Assembly (NCBI GenBank): GCA_043803945.1
Contig: JAZDJN010000036.1
Coordinates: 1 to 15,520 of the forward strand
Direction of reading: 5' to 3'
Length of the DNA: 15,520 bases
DNA from: a bacterium
Lineage (GTDB): Bacteria; Bacteroidota; Ignavibacteria; UBA10030
Made by a program: the position numbers and the translations under genes
Shown here: one piece after another, positions 1 through 14,130 of the stretch
How the letters are laid out: every line of letters begins with the position of its first letter
Numbering within the stretch: the first letter of the stretch is position 1
The notes under the pieces: model-generated
The model's database searches: none
Told to the model about the DNA's origin: nothing
The model's input: the letters and a program-made list of their open reading frames with translations, nothing else

Positions 1-192
1 ACGTGTTAGTCGCCATTGTGAAAAAAGAACTCGGACTCAAACAATCACTCTACACAATTCTACAGATTTTAAGCATAACTCTTTTTCAGAAAGACCCTTT
101 GTATCAAGCACTTACACCAATTGATCTACAAATTCATAACCCTTGCCCTGCTAACCAGTTGAATTTATTCAACTTTTAACCGGACAGTAGTG
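1..192 (+). mobile_element. 3' part and right end of an IS4-family insertion sequence (left part outside the window)
   Basis: The transposase-like C-terminus ends at 179 and is followed directly by ccggacagtagtg (180-192). This reads CACTACTGTCCGG from the outside in, with the 5'-CA terminus typical of IS4-family elements. The sequence switches abruptly to the octamer array at 193. Confidence 0.8.
3..179 (+). CDS. IS4-family (DUF4372-type) DDE transposase, C-terminal fragment
   Basis: Not in the ORF track. My translation from position 3 is VLVAIVKKELGLKQSLYTILQILSITLFQKDPLYQALTPIDLQIHNPCPANQLNLFNF*. It matches the recognisable C-terminus of these transposases (LVAIxKK...SLYxILQILSxTLF...NQLxLF). 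Confidence 0.85.
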   Translation: MLVAIVKKELGLKQSLYTILQILSITLFQKDPLYQALTPIDLQIHNPCPANQLNLFNF

Positions 193-328
193 CACTGAGT
201 CACTGAGGCACTGAGAGTCTTTCTCCGTGTCTCCGTGGTTTTTTTTACCACTGAGACACTGAGGCATTGAGAGTCTTTCTCCGTGTCTCTGTGTCTCTGT
301 GGTTTTTTTTACCACTGAGGCACTGAGA
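193..328. repeat. Tandem array of imperfect hairpins (REP-like) built from octamer repeats
   Basis: Unit = ac(cactgagN)2-3 + gtctt + (tctcYgtg)2-3 + g + T8. Unit 1 is 193-246, unit 2 is 247-310, and the left arm of unit 3 is 311-328. Left and right arms are reverse complements with one regular mismatch per octamer. Confidence 0.95.
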
Positions 329-331
329 GTA

Positions 332-706
332 TCACAAAACCATTCGTCGTATTCCTTCTTTTAGTACCGGCACATAGAAATTCAAGATAAAGCCAACCTT
401 AATACCTGATAATTTCAAATACGTCAACAACTGTGCTTCATGTACCGGCGCGATTGCATCAACGCACTTCAGTTCGATGACGACACGATGATCGACGACA
501 ATATCCATCCGATAACCGCATTCAAGCTTCACACCCTTATATTCAACCGGAAGAGGCCGTTGTCTCTCGAACGGGATTTGCTGCAGCTCCAGTTCGCGAC
601 AGAGACATTCTTCATAAACACTTTCCAGCAATCCCGGACCCAACGATCGATGAACTTCAATAGCCGCTGCCAGAATTTTATCTGTTAATTCCTTTTCGTA
701 TAACAT
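332..706 (-). CDS. GxxExxY protein (predicted PD-(D/E)XK nuclease fold), 124 aa
   Basis: Family motif GLLESVY, plus RMDIVV...IELK (D...ExK) and [10 protein letters not shown]-rich RBS (aggggggaaag) precedes the ATG. Confidence 0.95.
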
Positions 707-727
707 CTTTCCCCCCTATTTTTCTTT

Positions 728-772
728 TCTCCGTGTCTTCGTGTCTCCGTGGTTTTTTTAACCACTGAGTCA
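728..772. repeat. Right arm of hairpin unit 3, T-tract, and short left arm of a fourth unit
   Basis: tctccgtg-tcttcgtg-tctccgtg-g-T7 (728-759), then accactgagtca (761-772), which overlaps the stop codon of the response regulator. Confidence 0.92.
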
Positions 773-1399
773 TTCAATTAAACCGTTTCTTATAGCATAC
801 AGCGTCAGATCCGCATTCTTCCGCATTCCCATTTTTTCGAGGATGCGCGCACGATAGGTACTGACAGTTTTACCGCTGAGAAAAATCTCATGGGCAATTT
901 CCGTCACAGATTTTCCTTTTGCAAGCAGACACATGATCTGGAATTCCCGTTCTGAAAGTTTCTCGTGCGGTGTTCTATCAAGGTCTTTCTTGTCGCTAAA
1001 GAGATATTTTTCTGCAAGATCGGCGGAAATATATCTGCCGCCGGCAGAAATTTTCCTGATTGCAGATGCCAATTCTTCATACGCACTGTCTTTCGATAGG
1101 TACCCCGATGCACCCAAGCGCAACGCACGAGCTGCATATTGTGTTTGCGGGAAGATGCTGAGAACAAGAACGTGTGTCTTAATATTTTTTCTCTTCAGCG
1201 TTTGGAGGATATCAAGCCCGCTTAATCCCGGCATCGAGATATCGAGTATCACCAAGTCGTATCCGGATGATTCAATTTTCTCCAGAGCTTCCTGGCCGTC
1301 ACTGGCTGTTTCGACGACCGAGACCTCATCGAGCCTGTTGACAATGTCTTTTAAGCCTTCCCGTACAACTAAATGATCGTCGGCAATGAGTACTTTCAT
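770..1399 (-). CDS. NarL/UvrY-family DNA-binding response regulator (REC + LuxR HTH), 209 aa
   Basis: ADDH acidic pocket, LDISMPG phosphoacceptor, VLS, GYLSK, and the C-terminal LSEREFQI...KTVSTYRARILEKMG HTH. The start overlaps the kinase stop (TAATG, 1397-1401). Confidence 0.96.
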   Translation of the reverse strand: MKVLIADDHLVVREGLKDIVNRLDEVSVVETASDGQEALEKIESSGYDLVILDISMPGLSGLDILQTLKRKNIKTHVLVLSIFPQTQYAARALRLGASGYLSKDSAYEELASAIRKISAGGRYISADLAEKYLFSDKKDLDRTPHEKLSEREFQIMCLLAKGKSVTEIAHEIFLSGKTVSTYRARILEKMGMRKNADLTLYAIRNGLIE

Positions 1400-4300
1400 T
1401 ATTCCCTCTCTAAAGGGATAATGACTGTTACTTCTGTACCCTGAGGTTGAAGGGAAGTTATTTCTACTCTTCCGTTAAATTTTCTTGTTCGTTCACGCAT
1501 TCCGATGATCCCGAGCGATTTATTCGAGTTGATTTTATGCTCATCGATACCGATACCATTATCAATGATTTCGAGGATAAGATCGTTCTTCCTTTGATGA
1601 AGCTTGACTTCGACAATCGTGGCGTTTGCATGACGCACAACGTTCGTCAATGCCTCCTGTGTCACTCGAAAGAGGGTGAGGTTGATCTGCATATTGTGAG
1701 ATTGGATTTCTTCAAGATCTGAGTCGCATCGGATACCGGTTCGTTTTTCGAATTCTTCACAATACCATTCAATTGCAGGGATTAATCCTAAATCTTCTAA
1801 TATATCCGGACGGAGCTCGGAAGCGATTTTCTGAACATCTCGAATGGTGTTGTTCACGATATCGATCATTCGAGCCAATTTCGTTTCAATCTCACCCGTC
1901 AGGGAAACGTTGTCATGCAGCCAGTTCATATCGATCTTTAATGCGGTTAACGATTGACCCAGCTCATCATGAATTTCTCTCGAAATTCTTGCCCGATCGT
2001 TCTCTAACGCTTCGACGAGATGCTGGCTGAATTGTTCTAGTTGTGCCTTGGATTGTCTGAGCAGATCCTCTGCCTGCTTGCGTTCGGTGATGTCCCGGGC
2101 AGTCGTGTGCAAGTAGTTCTCTCCCGCAATCGACACACATTTGTTGTTGAACTCTGTGTATACTTTCACGCCATCAGGCCGCAGGATCTTTGCCTCGCTC
2201 AGGATCTGTTCTCCACCCCAGATTCGCTGATGATATGTCGTGTACACATCCAAATCGGGCTGATCGTAAAGATCGGGAATTCGCATTCCGAGTAACTGCT
2301 GATGCGAGTATCCTGTGAGAGCACATGCTGCACTGTTAACCGCAACAAATCGAGAATCTTGATCTGAAATGAACACGGCATCGCGTGAGCCTTCAAAGAT
2401 TGCCTCTTGCCATGCGAGAGCTTGTTTGAGGTTATCATCCGTACGTATGCGCTCGGTGATGTCGATCGAAACCGTGGAAAGTTGCTCCACCTCGCCGCTC
2501 GGCGACTTGTTGGCCAAAAGGGTCATCAAAACCGGAGTCTCACGGCCGTTCCGGTCCAGGAAAGCGGATCTGCCTGTCCACATACCGACGTTGATGGCAG
2601 TGGGGATAATCTCGTCGCGTAACAGCTTGTACGCCCACTCTGGATGAACATCGGCTATCTTGAGTTGGGACACGTCCTCCTGAGCCTGGACGCCGACCAT
2701 CTTCCGTCCGGCAGGATTGATGTAGAGGATGTGGGTATCCTTGGCATCAGCGAAACCCACGAAACCGGGCGTCGCGTCAAGTAGGGCTACCAGGAACACC
2801 CGGGTTTGCTCTGCCCGCTTCCGTTCGGTGATGTCGCGGGCAGTTGTAAACAACAAGACCTTTCCCGCTACCAGTACTCTACGGATAGTGGTTTCGAGAA
2901 ACACATAAGTACCGGATATAGTCCTATACCTATATTCCACATTTGTAAAAGCGGACGTGTCTCTTTCCATTGTATGAAATGCGTCGAGGAACAGGGCGCG
3001 GTCCTCAGAATGAATCTTCTCAAAGGGATCACCCAGTGTTTCTGGTGTGTATCCCAGTGTATTCTGCCATGCTGGGTTAGCCCATAGGATCTTTCCACTT
3101 TCGTTGGCAACTGTCAACAAGTCGTGCGAATGTTCAAACATTTTTCGGAAACGCTCCTGGCTCTCGCGCAGAGCCTCCTCCGCCCGCTTGCGATCGGTGA
3201 TGTTTTCCACGACACTAAGAATCCGTGGAATCTTACCATCTTGTGCATATAAAGGCACAGTGCGGAAAAGCTGGTGCTGGCTATTGAAAAAGAGCTCGAA
3301 TGATTGCCCTTGACCTTCGAACGTTTTCAAATAGTGTTCGCGTATAACGGGCGTTTGGTCGCCAAAGATCTGTTCGAGCTTCATGCCAACGAATTCATAC
3401 GGATTCAGATTCTGTTTCTTGAATTCCTGCCCCGCAGTAAAACTGATTGTCAGGTCTTTTTCAATGATGGAGAGATAGGAATTCGGATAGTTCTCAGCAA
3501 TTGTGCGCAAAAGCGCTTCGCTCTCTTGCAGCGCTGCTTCCGCGAGCTTACGCTCGGTGACGTCGCGGATATTCATAACAAAGCCGTCAACCGCCGGATT
3601 ATCAAAAAGATTATTGCCGAGACCTTCAAGAACACGCTCCGAGCCATCCTTATGACGCATGCGAAATGAGTTGGGAATAACAGTATCCTTTATGAGAATT
3701 GCTTTACCAAAATCAGCAATAGCGCGCGGGAGGTCGATTGGTTGAATAAAGCTACCCACGCTTTTACCAATCAGTTCCTCTTGTGTATACCCAAGATAAC
3801 GCTCAATAGAAGGACTTACATATTTTATAATCGCTTTCTTATTCACAATAATAATAATGTCCAAGGTATTCTCAGTGACTGCTTTAAAATATTCTTCGCT
3901 TCTCTTGATTGCCTCCTCCGCCTTTTTGCGCGCGGTAATGTCGCGGACAACAACCTGCGTGGCCGCCTTGCCTTGATAAGTGATGGGAATTCCGGCGACC
4001 TCTACATCAATCGTCGTTCCGTCAAACTTGATAAACTTTTCTTCAGCGAGCGGTGCGTTTTCCCCTTCTTCCGTTTGCCCGACGCGCTGAACGATGCTGT
4101 CTCGATAAGCTGGATGGACAACGTCGAGAATCGGCTTCCCAACCAGTTCTTGGGGGTCATTTGCGCCTATGAGTTTCACACTAGCCGGGTTTACGTAAAC
4201 GAATTTGCCCTGTTGATGGACCACAATTGCATCGGGAGACATTTCGACCAAATTGCGATACCGCTCCTCACTCTCGCGCAGCGCCTCCTCTATCTGCTTG

Positions 4301-7164
4301 CGCTCGGTGTCATCGAATAAATAGCCTTGGAGCTCGACCAGTTCGCCTCTCTCATCGAACACACCGCGAACATTCTCGATGATATGCACATCGGTGCCGT
4401 CGTGTCGCTTCAACCACGCTTCCTGAAATTCCAGGAATCCGTTTTCTCGGACCGATTGAAGGAATAATGAACGCGCGCCCGGGCTCGGGTACAGCTCATG
4501 CGTATTAGTTGCGAGCGCATCGTCAACGGACTTGAACCGGAAGACGTGAGCAAAGGCAGCGTTGCAGGCGATCAGCTTTCCTGCTGGAGTTGAAATATAG
4601 TCGCCCGCTAGATCTCCCTCGAAGAGTCTGCGATATCGCTCCTCCGATGCACGCAACATATCCTCAGCGCGCTTGTTCTCCAATTCGGCGAGCTTGCGCT
4701 CGGTGATATCGTGGATGAACATGCTCGTTCTTTCGTTTCCGCGAGAATCCTTGAAAACCTTTGTGGATACCATACCGGGGAAGATCGTGCCGTCTTTTCT
4801 GAGTAAGTTTATTTCACCGTTGAATTGCCCTGTTCTGCTTCTCACTTCAAGAGCCGCTTGCAGGCGCGGGTCGTTTGTATCTACAATTCCTCCTCTGCCA
4901 AGTTTTATGATTTCACTTTCGCTCCTTCCGAAAATCCGGCATGCTTCTGGATTAGCGGAATAAATCGTACCATCCGGTTTTGTGAACAAGATTGCTACTC
5001 CACTGTTTTCAAAAAGCAGACGATAACGCTCTTCACTCTCCCGCAACGCTCCTTCTGCCAGCTTTCTTTCGGTGATATCCTGAAGAACACCCAATGAACC
5101 GATTGATTTGCCCTGTTCATTCAAAATTTGTACCGCTGAATCGTTGATCCAGCGTATCTCTCCATTCCTGGTTCTAATCCGAATATCGGCAAGCCATTTC
5201 TTGATTGTACCGGCTCCTGCAAGCTTTCCTGCTTCCTCAAAGCTTATTCCGGTTGCATCTCCAAGCATTTCTGCATCCAACCGGATCTCGTTCCATAGCG
5301 AAGGAACAAATTCTTCAGCAGCGTATCCGGTAAATTGCAGAATACCTTCCCCTATGAATGAATATCTCTCTTGATCATCGTATCGGAGATACGGAACTGC
5401 TTTTACCTGGATTAGAGCGCTTCGATACCGGTCATGCAATTCGATTATTTCTCTTTGACCTCTTTTGCGTTTGGTAATGTCGCGCACGATGGCAGACATC
5501 GCTGCTGGCTGTCCGGCATTATCGCGGACGAGAGACACGCGCAACTCTACCGGGAAGACACTGCCGTCTTTGCGGCGGTATTCCTTCTCATAAACACCGG
5601 AAAAGCCTTGAGTCAAAATCTGCTCCTGGAGAATGCTCGCCTCGAAAGCGTGCCACTTTTGCGGCGTGATATCCAGATAGGTCAACTGGCGTATTTCGGA
5701 CTCTGAATAGCCCAGCATCTCTCGATAGGTCTGGTTGCATTCCAGAATGTGCCCGGCCATGTCCACCAACACGAATGCGTCGGTCATGGTTTCGTAGAGC
5801 CGGCGGTATTTCAATTCGGATTGTTGTAGCGCCTCCTCAATCCGCTTGCGCTCGGTGATGTCTGCGGCGATCCCCACCAGTCCGAGCGGCTGTCCCTTCT
5901 CATTGCGGACAACGGAGGTAGAAAGACTGATCGGAAATTCAGTTCCGTCTTTTTTTCGGTTGACAAGCTCACCTTGCCAACCGTTTTGAAGCGTTGCACT
6001 TAGAATTTTATCAGTCGCCGGTTCAGTGGTCGGTGAACGGACAATAGCAATAGGCTTACCGATAAGCTCATCTGCAGCGTAACCATACGTTCTCAAGAAG
6101 GCGTCATTAACAAAGAGAATCTTGTTTTCCGCATCGGTGATACTAACACATTCACCAATACTCCGAAGTGCGTGCGCAACGATGGCAATCGACTCCTCCG
6201 CACGTTTGCGGTCGGTGATATCGGCCATAAGGGCCAAGGTATGGACGACATTGTCGGCGGTTGTTAATGTGGAAGTAGAAATTGATAATATTTTCTTTTG
6301 GCCGTCTTTACGCGTTATCTCCCATTCTTCGGTGACAAGATTATCTCCTTTGCGCATCATGCTCATGCGCTCTTTTGCCTTTTCCTGAAGCTTTGGATCT
6401 GGGTACATGCTCTGATACCATCCCTGATGGTTGATCTCCTCCATTGTGTAGCCGGTAATCTCATCCATGCGACTGTTCCATACCGTAAATCCAACATAAG
6501 GATAGTCGGCAATTTCATGACACACAGCTATCCCTTCAGCGGTGTTATCAATGACGGAATTACGGAATGAAGCTGCATCTTTTAACTTCTGCTCCACCCG
6601 CTTGCCTGCCTGTTCGGCAGACAGGCGCTCGGTGATGTCAACCACTGCAATGTTGCACTCTTGCTCTTCACTGCCAGGCGTTGCCTCAATGTGTACAAAA
6701 CGCTGTTTATTCCCTCCATGGAGCGAAGTCTCGCAATTTAATTCTGTTTTGCTTTCAAATACTTTCTGCAGGAATTCATTGAAGGCCGGGCGCGAGTTTT
6801 CAGAAACGAAAAATCCGAAACGACGTTTCAATAATTTTGAGCATTCGAGGCCGAGCAGAAGAGCGCCTGTGAGGTTTGCCTTACAGATCGTACCATCGCG
6901 TTTAAGGGTTAGATAACCCGTCGGAGCAAAATTGTAGAAGTCGATGTATTGCTTCAGTTCCTGTTCTACCTCTTCCCTCGATTGCTGTAGTTCCTCCTTC
7001 ATCATCTCCAGCTCGATTTGATGAATCTGTAGTTCTTGCACCAGCCGAAGTAATTCTTCTTTCGTTCCCGGGAGGGTTTTTTCCTTCGAAATCTTCTTCA
7101 ACCGTTTCTCTGCCTTGCGGCGAAGCTCTGTGGTATCCATGAAGGTGGTGTTTTTCTTTTTCAT
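1399..7164 (-). CDS. Soluble multi-PAS sensor histidine kinase (13 PAS/PAC modules, HisKA_3, HATPase_c), about 1921 aa
   Basis: 13 modules each end in a D(I/V)TxRK-type motif. N-terminal coiled coil ELQIHQIELEM. H-box RISREIHDELGQ, N-box QEALTNVVRHA, DNGIG and LGIIGMRER. No transmembrane segment is apparent. I prefer ATG 7164 (GAAGGA upstream) over the TTG at 7200. Confidence 0.95.
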   Translation of the reverse strand: MKKKNTTFMDTTELRRKAEKRLKKISKEKTLPGTKEELLRLVQELQIHQIELEMMKEELQQSREEVEQELKQYIDFYNFAPTGYLTLKRDGTICKANLTGALLLGLECSKLLKRRFGFFVSENSRPAFNEFLQKVFESKTELNCETSLHGGNKQRFVHIEATPGSEEQECNIAVVDITERLSAEQAGKRVEQKLKDAASFRNSVIDNTAEGIAVCHEIADYPYVGFTVWNSRMDEITGYTMEEINHQGWYQSMYPDPKLQEKAKERMSMMRKGDNLVTEEWEITRKDGQKKILSISTSTLTTADNVVHTLALMADITDRKRAEESIAIVAHALRSIGECVSITDAENKILFVNDAFLRTYGYAADELIGKPIAIVRSPTTEPATDKILSATLQNGWQGELVNRKKDGTEFPISLSTSVVRNEKGQPLGLVGIAADITERKRIEEALQQSELKYRRLYETMTDAFVLVDMAGHILECNQTYREMLGYSESEIRQLTYLDITPQKWHAFEASILQEQILTQGFSGVYEKEYRRKDGSVFPVELRVSLVRDNAGQPAAMSAIVRDITKRKRGQREIIELHDRYRSALIQVKAVPYLRYDDQERYSFIGEGILQFTGYAAEEFVPSLWNEIRLDAEMLGDATGISFEEAGKLAGAGTIKKWLADIRIRTRNGEIRWINDSAVQILNEQGKSIGSLGVLQDITERKLAEGALRESEERYRLLFENSGVAILFTKPDGTIYSANPEACRIFGRSESEIIKLGRGGIVDTNDPRLQAALEVRSRTGQFNGEINLLRKDGTIFPGMVSTKVFKDSRGNERTSMFIHDITERKLAELENKRAEDMLRASEERYRRLFEGDLAGDYISTPAGKLIACNAAFAHVFRFKSVDDALATNTHELYPSPGARSLFLQSVRENGFLEFQEAWLKRHDGTDVHIIENVRGVFDERGELVELQGYLFDDTERKQIEEALRESEERYRNLVEMSPDAIVVHQQGKFVYVNPASVKLIGANDPQELVGKPILDVVHPAYRDSIVQRVGQTEEGENAPLAEEKFIKFDGTTIDVEVAGIPITYQGKAATQVVVRDITARKKAEEAIKRSEEYFKAVTENTLDIIIIVNKKAIIKYVSPSIERYLGYTQEELIGKSVGSFIQPIDLPRAIADFGKAILIKDTVIPNSFRMRHKDGSERVLEGLGNNLFDNPAVDGFVMNIRDVTERKLAEAALQESEALLRTIAENYPNSYLSIIEKDLTISFTAGQEFKKQNLNPYEFVGMKLEQIFGDQTPVIREHYLKTFEGQGQSFELFFNSQHQLFRTVPLYAQDGKIPRILSVVENITDRKRAEEALRESQERFRKMFEHSHDLLTVANESGKILWANPAWQNTLGYTPETLGDPFEKIHSEDRALFLDAFHTMERDTSAFTNVEYRYRTISGTYVFLETTIRRVLVAGKVLLFTTARDITERKRAEQTRVFLVALLDATPGFVGFADAKDTHILYINPAGRKMVGVQAQEDVSQLKIADVHPEWAYKLLRDEIIPTAINVGMWTGRSAFLDRNGRETPVLMTLLANKSPSGEVEQLSTVSIDITERIRTDDNLKQALAWQEAIFEGSRDAVFISDQDSRFVAVNSAACALTGYSHQQLLGMRIPDLYDQPDLDVYTTYHQRIWGGEQILSEAKILRPDGVKVYTEFNNKCVSIAGENYLHTTARDITERKQAEDLLRQSKAQLEQFSQHLVEALENDRARISREIHDELGQSLTALKIDMNWLHDNVSLTGEIETKLARMIDIVNNTIRDVQKIASELRPDILEDLGLIPAIEWYCEEFEKRTGIRCDSDLEEIQSHNMQINLTLFRVTQEALTNVVRHANATIVEVKLHQRKNDLILEIIDNGIGIDEHKINSNKSLGIIGMRERTRKFNGRVEITSLQPQGTEVTVIIPLERE

Positions 7165-7174
7165 AATTCGTTTT

Positions 7175-7194
7175 CCTTCGTGTACCTTCGTGGT
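7175..7194. repeat. Single arm related to the GxxExxY-associated repeats
   Basis: ccttcgtgta-ccttcgtggt has the same cttcgtg core as 737-743, the same gtggt end and the same orientation as the right arms. Its period is 10 instead of 8. Confidence 0.5.
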
Positions 7195-7250
7195 ATTCAA
7201 CCTCGTTTTCGGTGCTATAAAGAGAAGGAGCTAAGTCATAACAGCCCTGG

Positions 7251-9024: not shown

Positions 9025-9441
9025 ATGCAAAACCAACAATCCATTCTCATCATCGATGATTCGTCGCATGTCCGCTTTCTTCTTCTGAGAATGTTGAATC
9101 GGCTCGGCTTCATAACCGTCGATTCAGCAGACGACGGAATCATCGGTCTGGAAAAAGTCCATGCTTCTCCTCCAGATTTAATTTTCCTTGATGGCATCAT
9201 GCCCGGGAAGGATGGTTTAGCAGTTTTAAAAGAAGTTAAGCAATGCTTTCCGGAGATTGTGGTCATCATGTCAACTTCCCTGACGGAGAGAGAGAAAATA
9301 TTTGAATATAAAAATTCAGGTGCCGACTTCTACCTCCTCAAACCATTCGAAGATACAAAGTTGAAAGAAATTCTTTCGAGAGCCATTCCTCTCATTTCTC
9401 AACGGAAACAGGAGGTGCACTATGCAGTGTCCTCAGTGTAA
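9025..9441 (+). CDS. Single-domain CheY-like response regulator, about 138 aa
   Basis: ILIIDD, FLDGIMP, MSTS and LLKPF. The start is moved from 8833 to ATG 9025 (gagg at 9016-9019); ATG 9001 is an alternative. Confidence 0.9.
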   Translation: MQNQQSILIIDDSSHVRFLLLRMLNRLGFITVDSADDGIIGLEKVHASPPDLIFLDGIMPGKDGLAVLKEVKQCFPEIVVIMSTSLTEREKIFEYKNSGADFYLLKPFEDTKLKEILSRAIPLISQRKQEVHYAVSSV

Positions 9442-9748
9442 CTCCGAAAATGACCAAATCCGAAAATTCTGTAACAGTTGCGGTGCTCCACTCGGTAAAA
9501 TCTGCGATCGATGCGGGGTGGTGAACCGGCATGAAGATAGCTATTGTGGCACATGTGGTTTATCACTCGCTCCGTCACTTCAGCGACAACGCTCAGTATC
9601 TGCATCGGGACTTCCCACCCCATCAGCAAAACACCAATTCACCGAGAGAGAGATTGAAGACCTTCTCGTCTTACGTCGATCTCTTAACATCGATGCAAAA
9701 ACATTCTTCACAATGGCCCAACATGAAATCGACACTTTATTTGGATAA
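9422..9748 (+). CDS. Double zinc ribbon (DZR) protein, 108 aa
   Basis: Four CxxC pairs (CPQC, FCNSCGAPL, CDRC, YCGTCG). Strong RBS ggagg. Overlaps the upstream gene by 20 nt. Confidence 0.88.
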   Translation: MQCPQCNSENDQIRKFCNSCGAPLGKICDRCGVVNRHEDSYCGTCGLSLAPSLQRQRSVSASGLPTPSAKHQFTEREIEDLLVLRRSLNIDAKTFFTMAQHEIDTLFG

Positions 9749-11450
9749 TCCGATTGCACTGAGTCAAAGCGATCAAGTACTAGACTCACTTCAAAATAAG
9801 CATCTCATCGATGTGGATATTCTTATCGCTAAGAAGAATCAATTTCAGGAAGCTAAACAACTCCTGGGATTCACCCGTGCCATGATCTCGGTACTAGGAG
9901 TTGACGAAGAGATACTTGCCAACAGTATTTGCCAAACCGTTGGATTGGCACGTATGACTATTGCAAAAGAGATGGGGACCGCTCCTGCTCAAATAATAAC
10001 ACAGGAGGAGATCCTTCAATTTCGTGCAATACCCGTGTTCAAAATAGGTCTTGAGATCACATTCGCTTTTATCGATCCTCCCGATACATCTCTTCGGCGT
10101 CACCTGCAACAATTAACCGGCTCACGCGTTCTTCCCGTTATCACAACGGTCTCTGATTTCAATCTTGCTGTAAAACAGTATACAGGTTCGCTGGATAAAC
10201 TGCAGCGCCTCAGCTCTAACATCGATCTGAAAAAATTAGAATCGTCCTTTCGCCGGAATGAAGGCGGCGTGCTCATCGAGTCTCCAGCCGGCGAATCCAA
10301 CATGGAAAGCCTGGTTAATGAATTACTCTTGCGGGCAGCAAAAACGGGAACAAGCGATATTCATATCGAACCTGGCGAGAATGATTCACTCGTCCGTTTT
10401 AGAATCGATGGCGTCTTGCAGAAAATCATCACACTCCCTAAGGAGGCACATGCGAGCATGATTGCCATTCTGAAGGGAAAATCAGGGATGGATATGTTCG
10501 AACGCTCAATTCCTTTGGATGGCCGGATGTCGTTGAACTTCGCTGATCGTTGCTTCGATGTTCGCATTAGTACACTCCCACTTCTCTACGGCGAAAAAAT
10601 GGTGTTACGTGTTCTCAGTAAAACAGCGATGATGGTGAATCTTGAAAATCTCGGTTTCTCTGAAGGTAACCTCAAGAAATTTCGTTCACTCCTCGCCCTT
10701 CCTAACGGCATAGTTCTGGTCACCGGACCAACTGGAAGCGGCAAAACAACTACCCTGTATGCTGGATTGAATGAAATTAAGGGAATTGGCCGAAACATCA
10801 CGACAGTAGAGAATCCTGTTGAGTATAAACTTCCTCTTGTGAATCAAACTCAGGTAATACCCGAACGCGGCTTAACATTCGCCACCGCTCTTCGTGCGAT
10901 TCTAAGACAGGATCCTAATGTAATTCTCATCGGCGAAATTCGCGATGTTGAGACAGGTACTATCGCCACAGAAGCTGCACTAACGGGCCACCTCGTCCTC
11001 AGCACTCTTCATACCAATGATGCAATAGGCGCTATTCCAAGAATGATCAACCTCGGCATTGAATCGTTCTGGGTCAGCTCATCCATCATCGGGGTCGTAT
11101 CCCAGCGCCTTGTTAGAAGAATTTGTGTGCGTTGCCGGGAAGAATATCTTCCAGATGAGAATTCACTCCAGGAACTTGGCCTGGATAATTTCCCCCGAAC
11201 CTTACCAATGTTCCGTGGTCGTGGCTGTGAATACTGCAATGGGATCGGATATAAAGGCAGGGTGGCAATTCACGAGGTCCTCGTCATCACAGAAGAGATG
11301 AGGGAAATAATTATTGGTGAAGTGACCTCAAGCAAAATACGGGCGCTCGCTTTGGCAAGTGGCTATAAAGATCTGTTCTACGATGGCCTGCAAAAGGCAA
11401 TTGCTGGTATAACTACCACCGACGAATTGCTCAGGGTAGCAAGACATTAA
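9723..11450 (+). CDS. GspE/PulE/PilB-family secretion or pilus assembly ATPase, about 575 aa
   Basis: SDIHIEP, RFRIDGVL, Walker A GPTGSGKTT, Asp box TVENPVEY, Walker B LRQDPNVILIGEIRD, His box GHLVLSTLHTND and Zn motif CVRC...CEYC. The start is uncertain (ATG 9723 or TTG 9741); the 9531 start overlaps the DZR gene too far. Confidence 0.93.
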   Translation: MKSTLYLDNPIALSQSDQVLDSLQNKHLIDVDILIAKKNQFQEAKQLLGFTRAMISVLGVDEEILANSICQTVGLARMTIAKEMGTAPAQIITQEEILQFRAIPVFKIGLEITFAFIDPPDTSLRRHLQQLTGSRVLPVITTVSDFNLAVKQYTGSLDKLQRLSSNIDLKKLESSFRRNEGGVLIESPAGESNMESLVNELLLRAAKTGTSDIHIEPGENDSLVRFRIDGVLQKIITLPKEAHASMIAILKGKSGMDMFERSIPLDGRMSLNFADRCFDVRISTLPLLYGEKMVLRVLSKTAMMVNLENLGFSEGNLKKFRSLLALPNGIVLVTGPTGSGKTTTLYAGLNEIKGIGRNITTVENPVEYKLPLVNQTQVIPERGLTFATALRAILRQDPNVILIGEIRDVETGTIATEAALTGHLVLSTLHTNDAIGAIPRMINLGIESFWVSSSIIGVVSQRLVRRICVRCREEYLPDENSLQELGLDNFPRTLPMFRGRGCEYCNGIGYKGRVAIHEVLVITEEMREIIIGEVTSSKIRALALASGYKDLFYDGLQKAIAGITTTDELLRVARH

Positions 11451-11759: not shown

Positions 11760-12326
11760 ATGGCGCAAATGTTGTTAGTTATGGGAGCGTTTGCAATGCT
11801 CTCAACGCTTGCCCTGAGCATCAATGGCATGATGACAGGCTCTATGCAGCTCGGCATCGAAATGGAGGCAACGATGAATGCCGTCTCCATTGGCCAAAGC
11901 TTGATAGATGAAATTATGGCGAAGGATTTCGACGAGCACTCAACACACAACGATCAGATGTATGCGACGTCTGAAGCGACCCCTGCCGGTTCTTTTGGTA
12001 TTGACGGAGCAGGCGAAAGTTGTTCCGGTGCCGGCGGGGTTGGGTACGATACAACGTACGCCTCTCTTACCAAGTTCGACGACGTCGATGACTATCACCA
12101 TTATATTCGGTGGGTGCGGGATTCGCGCCTCGGATGGTTTGTCGATTCTGTCACCGTAGAGTATGTTGATGAAACAACACCCACGACAGCCTCTGGTTCA
12201 CAAACATTTTTCAAAACCATTACTGTTTCTGTCACAAACGATAATATGCCAAAGCAGCTCAATAACCTTGCCAGGGTTCAGCCGTATTACGTTCGAGATA
12301 TTTCCATTTACCGGCGGTACTTTTAA
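11760..12326 (+). CDS. Minor pilin-like protein (MshD/PilV-like), 188 aa
   Basis: N-terminal hydrophobic helix, segment IGQSLIDEIMAKDFDE and motif FDDVDDY resembling MshD-type pilins, and a late strand KTITVSVT. No G|FTLIE leader. Confidence 0.65.
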   Translation: MAQMLLVMGAFAMLSTLALSINGMMTGSMQLGIEMEATMNAVSIGQSLIDEIMAKDFDEHSTHNDQMYATSEATPAGSFGIDGAGESCSGAGGVGYDTTYASLTKFDDVDDYHHYIRWVRDSRLGWFVDSVTVEYVDETTPTTASGSQTFFKTITVSVTNDNMPKQLNNLARVQPYYVRDISIYRRYF

Positions 12327-12341
12327 AGGAGGGATAAGACA

Positions 12342-12941
12342 ATGCATGTAATGCTCGATATCGTTGGCTCGATGTTCATTTTCGGTTTTCTCATTTTGAC
12401 CGTAGGACGGGTCCAGCAAAATTTGAACACGACACTTTACCAGTCAACCTATAATATTCAGACACAGCGCAATGCGATTGAATTAGCAAAGCAAATCGAA
12501 TTCGAATTTACAAAAATTGGCTATGGGGTAAACAGCAACCAGTTGGTCTATGCAGATTCTAATCGGATCATTTTCAGGGGCGATATGAAAAACACCGGAC
12601 AAGTCGATTCTATCCGCTATTCAAAGGGTACAACCTCGCTGGCAACATCTTCTACCAATCCCCGCGACTTTCCATTAATACGCCGCTCAAAAGTTAGCAA
12701 TGATTCACTGACTCAGCATTTTGGCATTACCCGTTTAACGTTCGCGTATTACGACTCCACAGGTACTGCAATGACAACGCCGGTATCATCCGGCCTGATG
12801 ATCAATGTTCGGGCAATTAATGTTGCATTCCGGGTAGAGAGTTTTGAATCCGTTTACGACCCGGTATCCGGTGACACAACATGGTTCGCAGTGAACTGGC
12901 AAAAAAGGATTTATCCAAGAAACTTAAGCAATTACAGGTGA
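12342..12941 (+). CDS. Minor pilin-like protein (PilW/GspJ/MshO-like), 199 aa
   Basis: N-terminal hydrophobic helix, amphipathic helix ending in EFTKIGYG, LTFAYYD, VRAINV and a terminal PRNL motif. RBS aggaggg. Confidence 0.62.
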   Translation: MHVMLDIVGSMFIFGFLILTVGRVQQNLNTTLYQSTYNIQTQRNAIELAKQIEFEFTKIGYGVNSNQLVYADSNRIIFRGDMKNTGQVDSIRYSKGTTSLATSSTNPRDFPLIRRSKVSNDSLTQHFGITRLTFAYYDSTGTAMTTPVSSGLMINVRAINVAFRVESFESVYDPVSGDTTWFAVNWQKRIYPRNLSNYR

Positions 12942-12944
12942 GAT

Positions 12945-13127
12945 ATGGGATGTTCAGCGATGTTTCTGGTGACGGGGCTCGGTATGGCCTTTGCAATGAT
13001 AGGCTTCAACATCAATAAGACAGGGAGCCAGGCCGTTGAGGTACAGATGGAGTATATGAAATTTGCCAATGCCCGCAACATTGGCAATCTGAAGAACTAT
13101 AGAGTATTGAGATGGTACGAGCAATAA
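12945..13127 (+). pseudogene. PilX-like third minor pilin, apparently with a large in-frame internal deletion (60 aa)
   Basis: A hydrophobic N-terminus and ARNI segment typical of the PilX-like N-terminal helix are joined directly to a PilX-like terminus, YRVLRWYEQ. It starts 3 nt after the previous stop. Confidence 0.5.
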
Positions 13128-13957: not shown

Positions 13958-13961
13958 AGAG

Positions 13962-14044
13962 TGGGCAGGGAAGGATTCGAACCTCCGAAGGCATGAGCCG
14001 TCAGATTTACAGTCTGATGCGTTTAACCACTTCGCTACCTGCCC
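13962..14044 (-). tRNA. tRNA-Tyr(GTA)
   Basis: Acceptor GGGCAGG/CCTGCCC-A, anticodon arm TCAGA CTGTAAA TCTGA, long variable arm and GGTTCGAATCC. CCA is not encoded. Confidence 0.97.
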
Positions 14045-14057
14045 ATTATCGTCGTCG

Positions 14058-14130
14058 AGCTGGCGATCGGACTTGAACCGATGACCTGCTGATTACAAGT
14101 CAGCTGCTCTACCAGCTGAGCTACGCCAGC
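14058..14130 (-). tRNA. tRNA-Thr(TGT)
   Basis: Acceptor GCTGGCG/CGCCAGC-T, anticodon arm GCTGA CTTGTAA TCAGC and T arm ATCGG TTCAAGT CCGAT. CCA is not encoded. Confidence 0.97.

Follow-up and report, generated by a model that had tools for sequence, protein, structure and literature searches.

Small enzyme genes accompanied by inverted repeats have been described in several systems. In the Ssn system, nucleases of the GIY-YIG type (cd10448) are associated with NTS/SRM repeats: a small single-domain nuclease gene is flanked by its own inverted repeats, each homologue has its own repeat variant, many copies of the repeats are gene-less, and the layout has been likened to that of REP/RAYT (PMC11893778). 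In REPIN/RAYT systems, inverted doublets with a variable spacer form gene-less units that far outnumber the genes and track gene presence (PMC8049555, PMC8266576, PMC6006769, the last of which covers TIRYT); they are inherited vertically, amplified locally in tandem and rare on plasmids. In Geobacter metallireducens, the "class 2 predicted global regulator binding sites" (consensus TCTCCGTS(Y)), published in 2009, consist of three tandem repeats paired on opposite strands at a variable distance, and the text on these sites takes them as IHF/HU sites and draws no link to a nuclease (PMC2700814). The 23S rRNA intervening sequence (IVS) is a unit of ~430 nt with a small ORF (S23p, a four-helix bundle) that was horizontally gained and then vertically retained (PMC4990558).

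Here we describe a hairpin array with a GxxExxY gene that is a real and widespread nuclease-repeat pairing of the REP/RAYT and Ssn kind but a member of neither. The analogy with REP/RAYT drawn in a preliminary description of this DNA holds at the level of layout, since an enzyme gene is flanked by cognate inverted repeats and gene-less doublets are commoner where the gene is present. Unlike Ssn, for which nuclease activity has been shown, the GxxExxY protein is not GIY-YIG but a predicted PD-(D/E)XK nuclease of the Cas4/RecB type, and its arms are tandem 8-9-mers that bracket the gene. In contrast to REPIN/RAYT, the system has no HUH/Y1 enzyme, its arms have no GTAG-type tetranucleotide foot, up to 13 divergent paralogues occur per genome instead of one, and the gene usually lies inside one large hairpin. 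Unlike the IVS, the cassette is found in mRNA operon junctions rather than in an rRNA gene, and carries a nuclease-fold cargo and no S23p. The Geobacter repeats have the word of the right arm described below and, like the array here, three tandem words paired on opposite strands, so that gene-less pairs with this word were already known; the link to the GxxExxY gene we found in no paper, in a literature that included part of the supplement of PMC2700814. Published mentions of the name GxxExxY were passing annotations among the matches listed.

The window, that is, the whole stretch of 15,520 nt analyzed here, is a whole contig, and the array lies near its left edge. Gene-less unit 1 (193..237) comprises three CACTGAGN words (193-216), the loop GTCTT (217-221) and two TCTCCGTG words (222-237), followed by G and T8; gene-less unit 2 (249..301) comprises three left words (249-272), the same loop (273-277) and three right words (278-301), again followed by G and T8, and the two units are 93% identical over 45 nt. 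In unit 3, left words at 313-328 and right words at 728-751, the latter followed by G and T7, enclose an insert of 399 bp (329-727). The linker G-T8-AC at 238..248 recurs at 302-312 and, as T7-AAC, at 752-762, and a single fourth left word (763..770), whose last base is common with the stop codon of the adjoining response-regulator gene, forms the outer edge of the array. Three units of the arm, loop, arm, G and T7-8 layout are therefore present where the preliminary description had placed them, with four corrections of detail. The linkers can also be read as loops in an alternative hairpin register, since, given the word at 763-770, the array also parses as arm, T/A7-8 loop and arm (z -3.5/-6.3). 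Unit 2 folded far better than its shuffles (z = -6.9 as RNA and -5.5/-6.5 as DNA; 0 of 200 shuffles as good); the fold of unit 1 alone was not significant against shuffles (z -1.4 to -1.7). The arms are imperfect, with the central base mismatched in all seven in-register word pairs (7/7).

Unit 1 lacks the leading "ac" because the end of an insertion sequence (IS) adjoins the array at 192. This IS 3' end with its right terminus (1..192, plus strand), which we take to be IS4-like, is context outside the system. It recurs at 98-100% identity on three contigs of the genome (C31, C71 and C78), and none of six other matching IS ends, or of one unrelated match, lies within these repeats; targeting of the arms by the IS was rejected, as its other copies sit at unrelated sites. 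The 57-aa protein piece that it encodes had no Pfam match and finishes in a QLNLF-like tail, presumably resembling a sliding-clamp motif. The IS separates the array from its former downstream DNA, which in orthologous loci contains a second regulator.

The insert of unit 3 contains the GxxExxY gene (332..706, minus strand, 124 aa), identified by matches to PF13366 (E 2e-44) and TIGR04256 (E 1e-45) with a score above the curated cut-off, in agreement with the first assignment. It is the one minus-strand ORF of at least 60 aa in 329-727; a plus-strand ORF of 82 aa (440-688) that overlaps it was read as a shadow ORF, and a G6 run at 711..716 (minus strand) is a likely ribosome-binding site. The arm 3' of the gene (313..328) has two words and lies 3 nt from the stop codon, and the arm 5' of it (728..751) has three, reading CACGGAG/CACGAAG/CACGGAG on the gene strand. 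The preliminary description had further placed the gene at the loop position. It does lie between the arms of unit 3, but the insert, which starts with gt and ends with tcttt, contains an extra T compared with the empty loop, within a pyrimidine run, and these ends therefore speak only weakly for insertion at a fixed site.

The response regulator next to the array (LuxR/NarL type, 770..1399, minus strand) is a host gene co-oriented with the GxxExxY gene and is the probable source of its transcription by read-through; no promoter-like site was found in 150-900. A 1933-aa histidine kinase coupled to the regulator (1399-7200) combines a HisKA_3 core with 10 or more PAS domains, and its PAS repeats account for the direct repeats of 360-380 nt there. 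Elsewhere in the window, a double-zinc-ribbon ORF (9422-9748) overlaps, in another frame, the annotated start of a T2SS/type IV pilus ATPase ORF (9531-11450), which probably starts later than annotated; the small ORFs after it (11760-13127; 188, 199 and 60 aa) have hydrophobic N-termini and appeared pilin-like by eye, with no Pfam match for the two tested; and tRNA-Thr and tRNA-Tyr genes lie at 13961-14130 on the minus strand.

The encoded protein models as a minimal nuclease of the predicted Cas4/RecB type. G25, E28 and Y31 of the name-giving motif were found in 225 of 225 homologues, as were the predicted catalytic residues E28, D68 and K80, with E78 in 224; E28, D68, E78, K80, Q92 and Y96 were each conserved in 97-100% of the 225. 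These residues correspond to the RecB motif set as described for Cas4 (PMC8610317), with E28 as motif I, D68 as motif II, E78-x-K80 as motif III and Q92-x3-Y96 as QxxxY, an equivalence that is inferred rather than taken from superposition. In the AlphaFold model (pLDDT 95.8), the top fold match was Cas4 SSO0001 (VIA Z 8.0, near background; rmsd 3.8; 99 aligned residues), and the best matches, all middling, were Cas4, lambda exonuclease, AddAB and other PD-(D/E)XK folds. Foldseek gave no match at E <= 0.001 for the predicted structure (best E 5e-3), no solved structure was found that matched the protein by sequence, and the matching clusters of an atlas search were PF13366 only. The four-cysteine Fe-S staple of Cas4 was not found in this 124-aa protein, as the homologues share no conserved cysteines at 85%, and there are no cas genes in the window. 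Purifying selection was evident in one genus (dN/dS 0.117, with 16 of 45 pairs usable), compared with 0.016 and 0.020 for the neighbor genes.

Inverted tandem arms proved to be a property of the gene family. From 235 distinct homologous proteins extracted, we kept 225 with full flanks, a set skewed by an over-representation of close homologues (80 loci at 59-77%) and of one phylum. With a motif-free test, in which one 7-mer had to occur in tandem on both sides of the gene in inverted orientation, arms were detected at 162 of the 225 loci, compared with 2 of 400 control ORFs of the window genome; the remaining 63 loci failed. The gene lay in the loop at 113 loci and between hairpins at 19, recognized words were absent at 21, and 72 were partial or ambiguous; the median distance from gene to arm was 29 nt upstream and 15 nt downstream. 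The outer flank consensus of the arms ended in (T)(T)CAC/AAC. The closest homologues came from at least 17 phyla, and 115 of 201 sampled genomes of the window's phylum had the gene. At least seven triple arms were present in 42 of these 115 genomes versus 1 of the 86 without the gene, a comparison in which kin are not independent and gene-adjacent arms add to the counts; the one arm-rich genome without GxxExxY also had a high reversed-pattern control. In a converse search that started from arms only (80 of 124 loci taken, one overlap dropped, leaving 79), we observed 35 gene-less pairs, 2 GxxExxY genes, 3 loci whose loop contained other DNA and 39 that lacked a strict partner arm, and no recurrent cargo other than GxxExxY. 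The window genome itself has 12 GxxExxY matches, with different words among the paralogues; seven of the 12 passed either scripted arm test, and the arms of the others were degenerate by eye. Arms of the GxxExxY type were found at none of its 8 four-helix-bundle genes and none of its 12 Y1 genes. Tandem inverted arms made of other words flank 3 of the 8 four-helix-bundle genes, for which no nuclease motif is known, and four-helix-bundle genes (TIGR02436) with inverted tandem 7-mer arms were seen at C65:12077, C104:93694, C12:369, C87:62513 and C62:7192.

That the array is a set of terminators, in which each hairpin with its T7-8 stops plus-strand transcription from the IS, is suggested by the T8 after each right arm on the plus strand and by one terminator-like match at 225-238. 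A T run stood beside the arms at only 12-13 of 94 loci, so termination was rejected as the function of the family, and it would leave the link with the gene unexplained; we give this explanation hardly any credence and regard termination as at most a local side effect.

The word of the arms followed the protein. On a fast tree of 225 proteins with 188 labelled rows, the word class changed 59 times, compared with at least 102 times in each of 200 shuffles, and a protein shared its word with its nearest cross-phylum neighbor in 51 of 65 cases, compared with 23.8 expected. Left and right arms agreed in register across 113 loci (0.86 vs. 0.51 shuffled at position 2; 0.89 vs. 0.57 at position 5), and this agreement exceeded that within an arm at positions 2, 3 and 7. 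Among the rows listed, the word could not be predicted from any residue in independent pairs under phylogenetic control (median p 0.5-1). Linkage alone can produce co-variation, and this pattern shows co-inheritance of word and protein, not recognition. We infer recognition and cleavage of the arms from the linkage, the fold and the Ssn precedent together, which makes the 8-base repeat the likely, if putative, target of the enzyme.

The origin of the gene-less units was addressed in the window genome, where 65 gene-less pairs were counted against 0 in a Markov null. The preliminary description had regarded such units as derivatives of the gene-bearing one, and this applied to part of them. Units of family C (20 copies) align with two broken GxxExxY genes, and 11 of the 20 keep the gene's first codons (p <= 0.01 vs. 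shuffles), a count obtained after a first version of the test that reached past the breakpoint (3 of 62) had been re-anchored on the N-terminal 11 residues, in a window chosen after the remnant had been seen. These remnants show that family C, at least, arose by deletion and is a deletion derivative that multiplied; in families A and B, no remnant of the gene was detected (0 of 16 and 0 of 34). The two gene-less units of the window have loop and linker in common, which suggests that a deletion occurred first and that the product was then duplicated locally in tandem.

A 21-bp end encloses the units of families A and B and corresponds to the left terminus of a broken DUF772/DDE transposon, presumably of the IS1182 family, and MITE-wrapped copies were up to 99-100% identical. 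Of the 65 gene-less pairs, 30 adjoin such an end, 10 another MITE-like end and 25 neither, against backgrounds of 2 and 17 per 1000 for the two ends; with 40 of the 65 thus next to a MITE-type end, gene-less units have recently spread through this genome largely by piggy-backing on such ends. The window's two gene-less units are among the 25, and, in contrast to IS1182-type MITEs, neither they nor the gene-bearing cassette have such ends, the arms being cargo of the MITEs. The broken transposon lies at G000:C13:472 (L305:164-1777), with ~50 sites genome-wide, and its 21-bp left end bounds two MITE families (16 and 34 copies) whose members contain arm pairs and often lie head to tail with a common CTAG; many contigs break at these MITEs. 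The second MITE-like end, GTAA(C/T)T(A/G)CTCAG (138 matches), encloses family C as well as several hairpin cargoes of unrelated kinds, and no transposase was seen beside GTAAYT-type ends in the window genome. In several gene-less units, unrelated small hairpins interrupt the arms, often at one and the same word (C40:6131, C10:70725, C38:207 and others).

These data raise the question of whether the arms are kept or moved by a host DNA-binding protein or by DDE transposases, with GxxExxY merely linked to them. The 30 pairs beside IS1182-type ends, with their near-identical copies, are in line with such a passenger role, as are the published interpretation of paired TCTCCGTS(Y) words as putative sites for IHF/HU (PMC2700814) and the occupation of one junction by different word classes, including 7-mers (see below). 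It is difficult to reconcile with words that differ among the paralogues of one host and follow the protein, with the rarity of arm-rich genomes that lack the gene (1/86) and with the lack of any other recurrent cargo between the arms; we consider it improbable.

Comparison of orthologous loci revealed both filled and empty loops, between species. In a genus represented by 23 genomes, one junction was filled in 10, decayed in 1, occupied by arms only in 1 and free of arms in 11; the arms-only genome was sister to a filled one, and the arm-free genomes were mostly outgroups. This distribution is that of one gain, long retention (10 of 12 arm-bearing species) and occasional loss. At an acidobacterial carboxylase/lyase junction, for which 28 of 30 loci were examined, with two unpublished genomes left out and states classed by eye, 2 loci were filled, 1 had an empty pair and 2 had partial arms of the same word, 2 had empty pairs of related words, ~9 had 7-mer arms, 3 were bare and the rest had other states, all scattered on the host tree. 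This junction (L275-L304) is a recurrent hot spot, with at least 6 hairpin word classes across species. An orthologue of the window's regulator, 69-73% identical, was present in 3 of 85 family genomes, none with arms, and both arms and gene were absent at the three orthologous kinase-regulator loci; one contig of run X1 matched the regulator over 785-1399, with 87 differences in 615 nt. No target-site duplication was evident by eye at the orthologous junctions compared. By crude ORF calls, 63 of 100 cassettes had the orientation of both neighbors and 4 were antisense to the two of them (p 1e-14), and cassettes started no more than 20 nt past the upstream stop codon at 35 of 56 loci.

This sense bias, the proximity to the upstream stop and the stronger agreement of the arms in register than within an arm would fit an element acting at the RNA level, in which, as in the ORF-bearing IVS, pairing of the arms within the operon mRNA would extrude the ORF as a loop, and RNase III or the protein itself would process the arms; a precedent exists in the IVS, with its four-helix ORF and RNase III excision (PMC4990558). 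Yet G-U and A-C pairs on the gene strand showed no clear preference (69 vs. 55 at positions 2, 4 and 5), every word pair of the window contains a mismatch, the whole cassette folded no better than shuffles (z 0.63), the best fold matches are DNases, and Rfam gave no match near the gathering score, only six miRNA-type matches far below it. We therefore regard an RNA-level element as possible but unlikely.

A further explanation, advanced in the preliminary description, is that the unit with the gene is autonomously mobile, by excision or self-copying, and also mobilizes the empty units. Independent arrivals at operon junctions, cross-phylum neighbors in the protein tree, deletion derivatives that multiplied and the 25 of 65 gene-less pairs without either MITE-type end could be so explained. 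Against autonomy, near-identical gene copies are lacking in the window genome, where 9 intact paralogues are only 33-77% identical; one gain was followed by vertical retention in the genus of 23 genomes; junctions show no target-site duplication by eye; and GxxExxY was found in 0 of 50,697 phage records, 7 of 72,556 plasmid records and on 2 viral contigs, both with arms. Moreover, the protein is a 124-aa hydrolytic nuclease, and to our knowledge RecB-type hydrolytic nucleases have no evident strand-joining chemistry. On single-copy, vertical inheritance, as known for RAYT genes, the observations point both ways: inheritance is vertical in one genus, but the window genome has 12 matches and protein neighbors cross phyla. 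Autonomy was thus not upheld, and we consider it quite improbable.

In place of these alternatives, we favor, at about even odds, the proposal that the nuclease recognizes its own word where the DNA is single-stranded or forms a hairpin and that the copying is left to host repair. The history of the window's locus is well supported: a GxxExxY gene with two inverted tandem-octamer arms arrived at the stop codon of the response regulator; a gene-less version of the unit, presumably formed by deletion between the arms, underwent tandem duplication, and an IS of unrelated origin subsequently inserted at the array edge. The nuclease, expressed by read-through from host operons, may recognize its own word, CRC-N-RAK, with the central base loosely held, in a hairpin, a cruciform or single-stranded DNA, and nick at or near it, after which host repair and recombination would amplify, delete or relocate the arms. 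DDE-type MITE ends may capture gene-less units and so spread them further. The gene would persist under purifying selection, as do RAYT or Ssn, rather than as a self-sufficient transposon. Beyond this, we tentatively suggest, as a broader idea that may well not hold, that GxxExxY proteins are a large undescribed family of word-specific Cas4/RecB-type hairpin or ssDNA nucleases that seed arms, with or without the gene, just past operon stop codons, and form a third enzyme class driving hairpin repeats beside the HUH RAYTs and the GIY-YIG Ssn, and that the four-helix-bundle genes with 7-mer arms are a parallel system competing for sites.

For PDDEXK_3, a family whose function has been classed as "Unknown" (PMC3424549), the arms provide every clade with a specific candidate substrate, so that the function of GxxExxY can be tested directly with short oligonucleotides. 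Should cleavage prove to be word-specific, the family would account for an abundant class of intergenic repeats formerly taken for regulator sites, bring a new nuclease fold under the REP/RAYT principle and make very small sequence-specific nucleases available.
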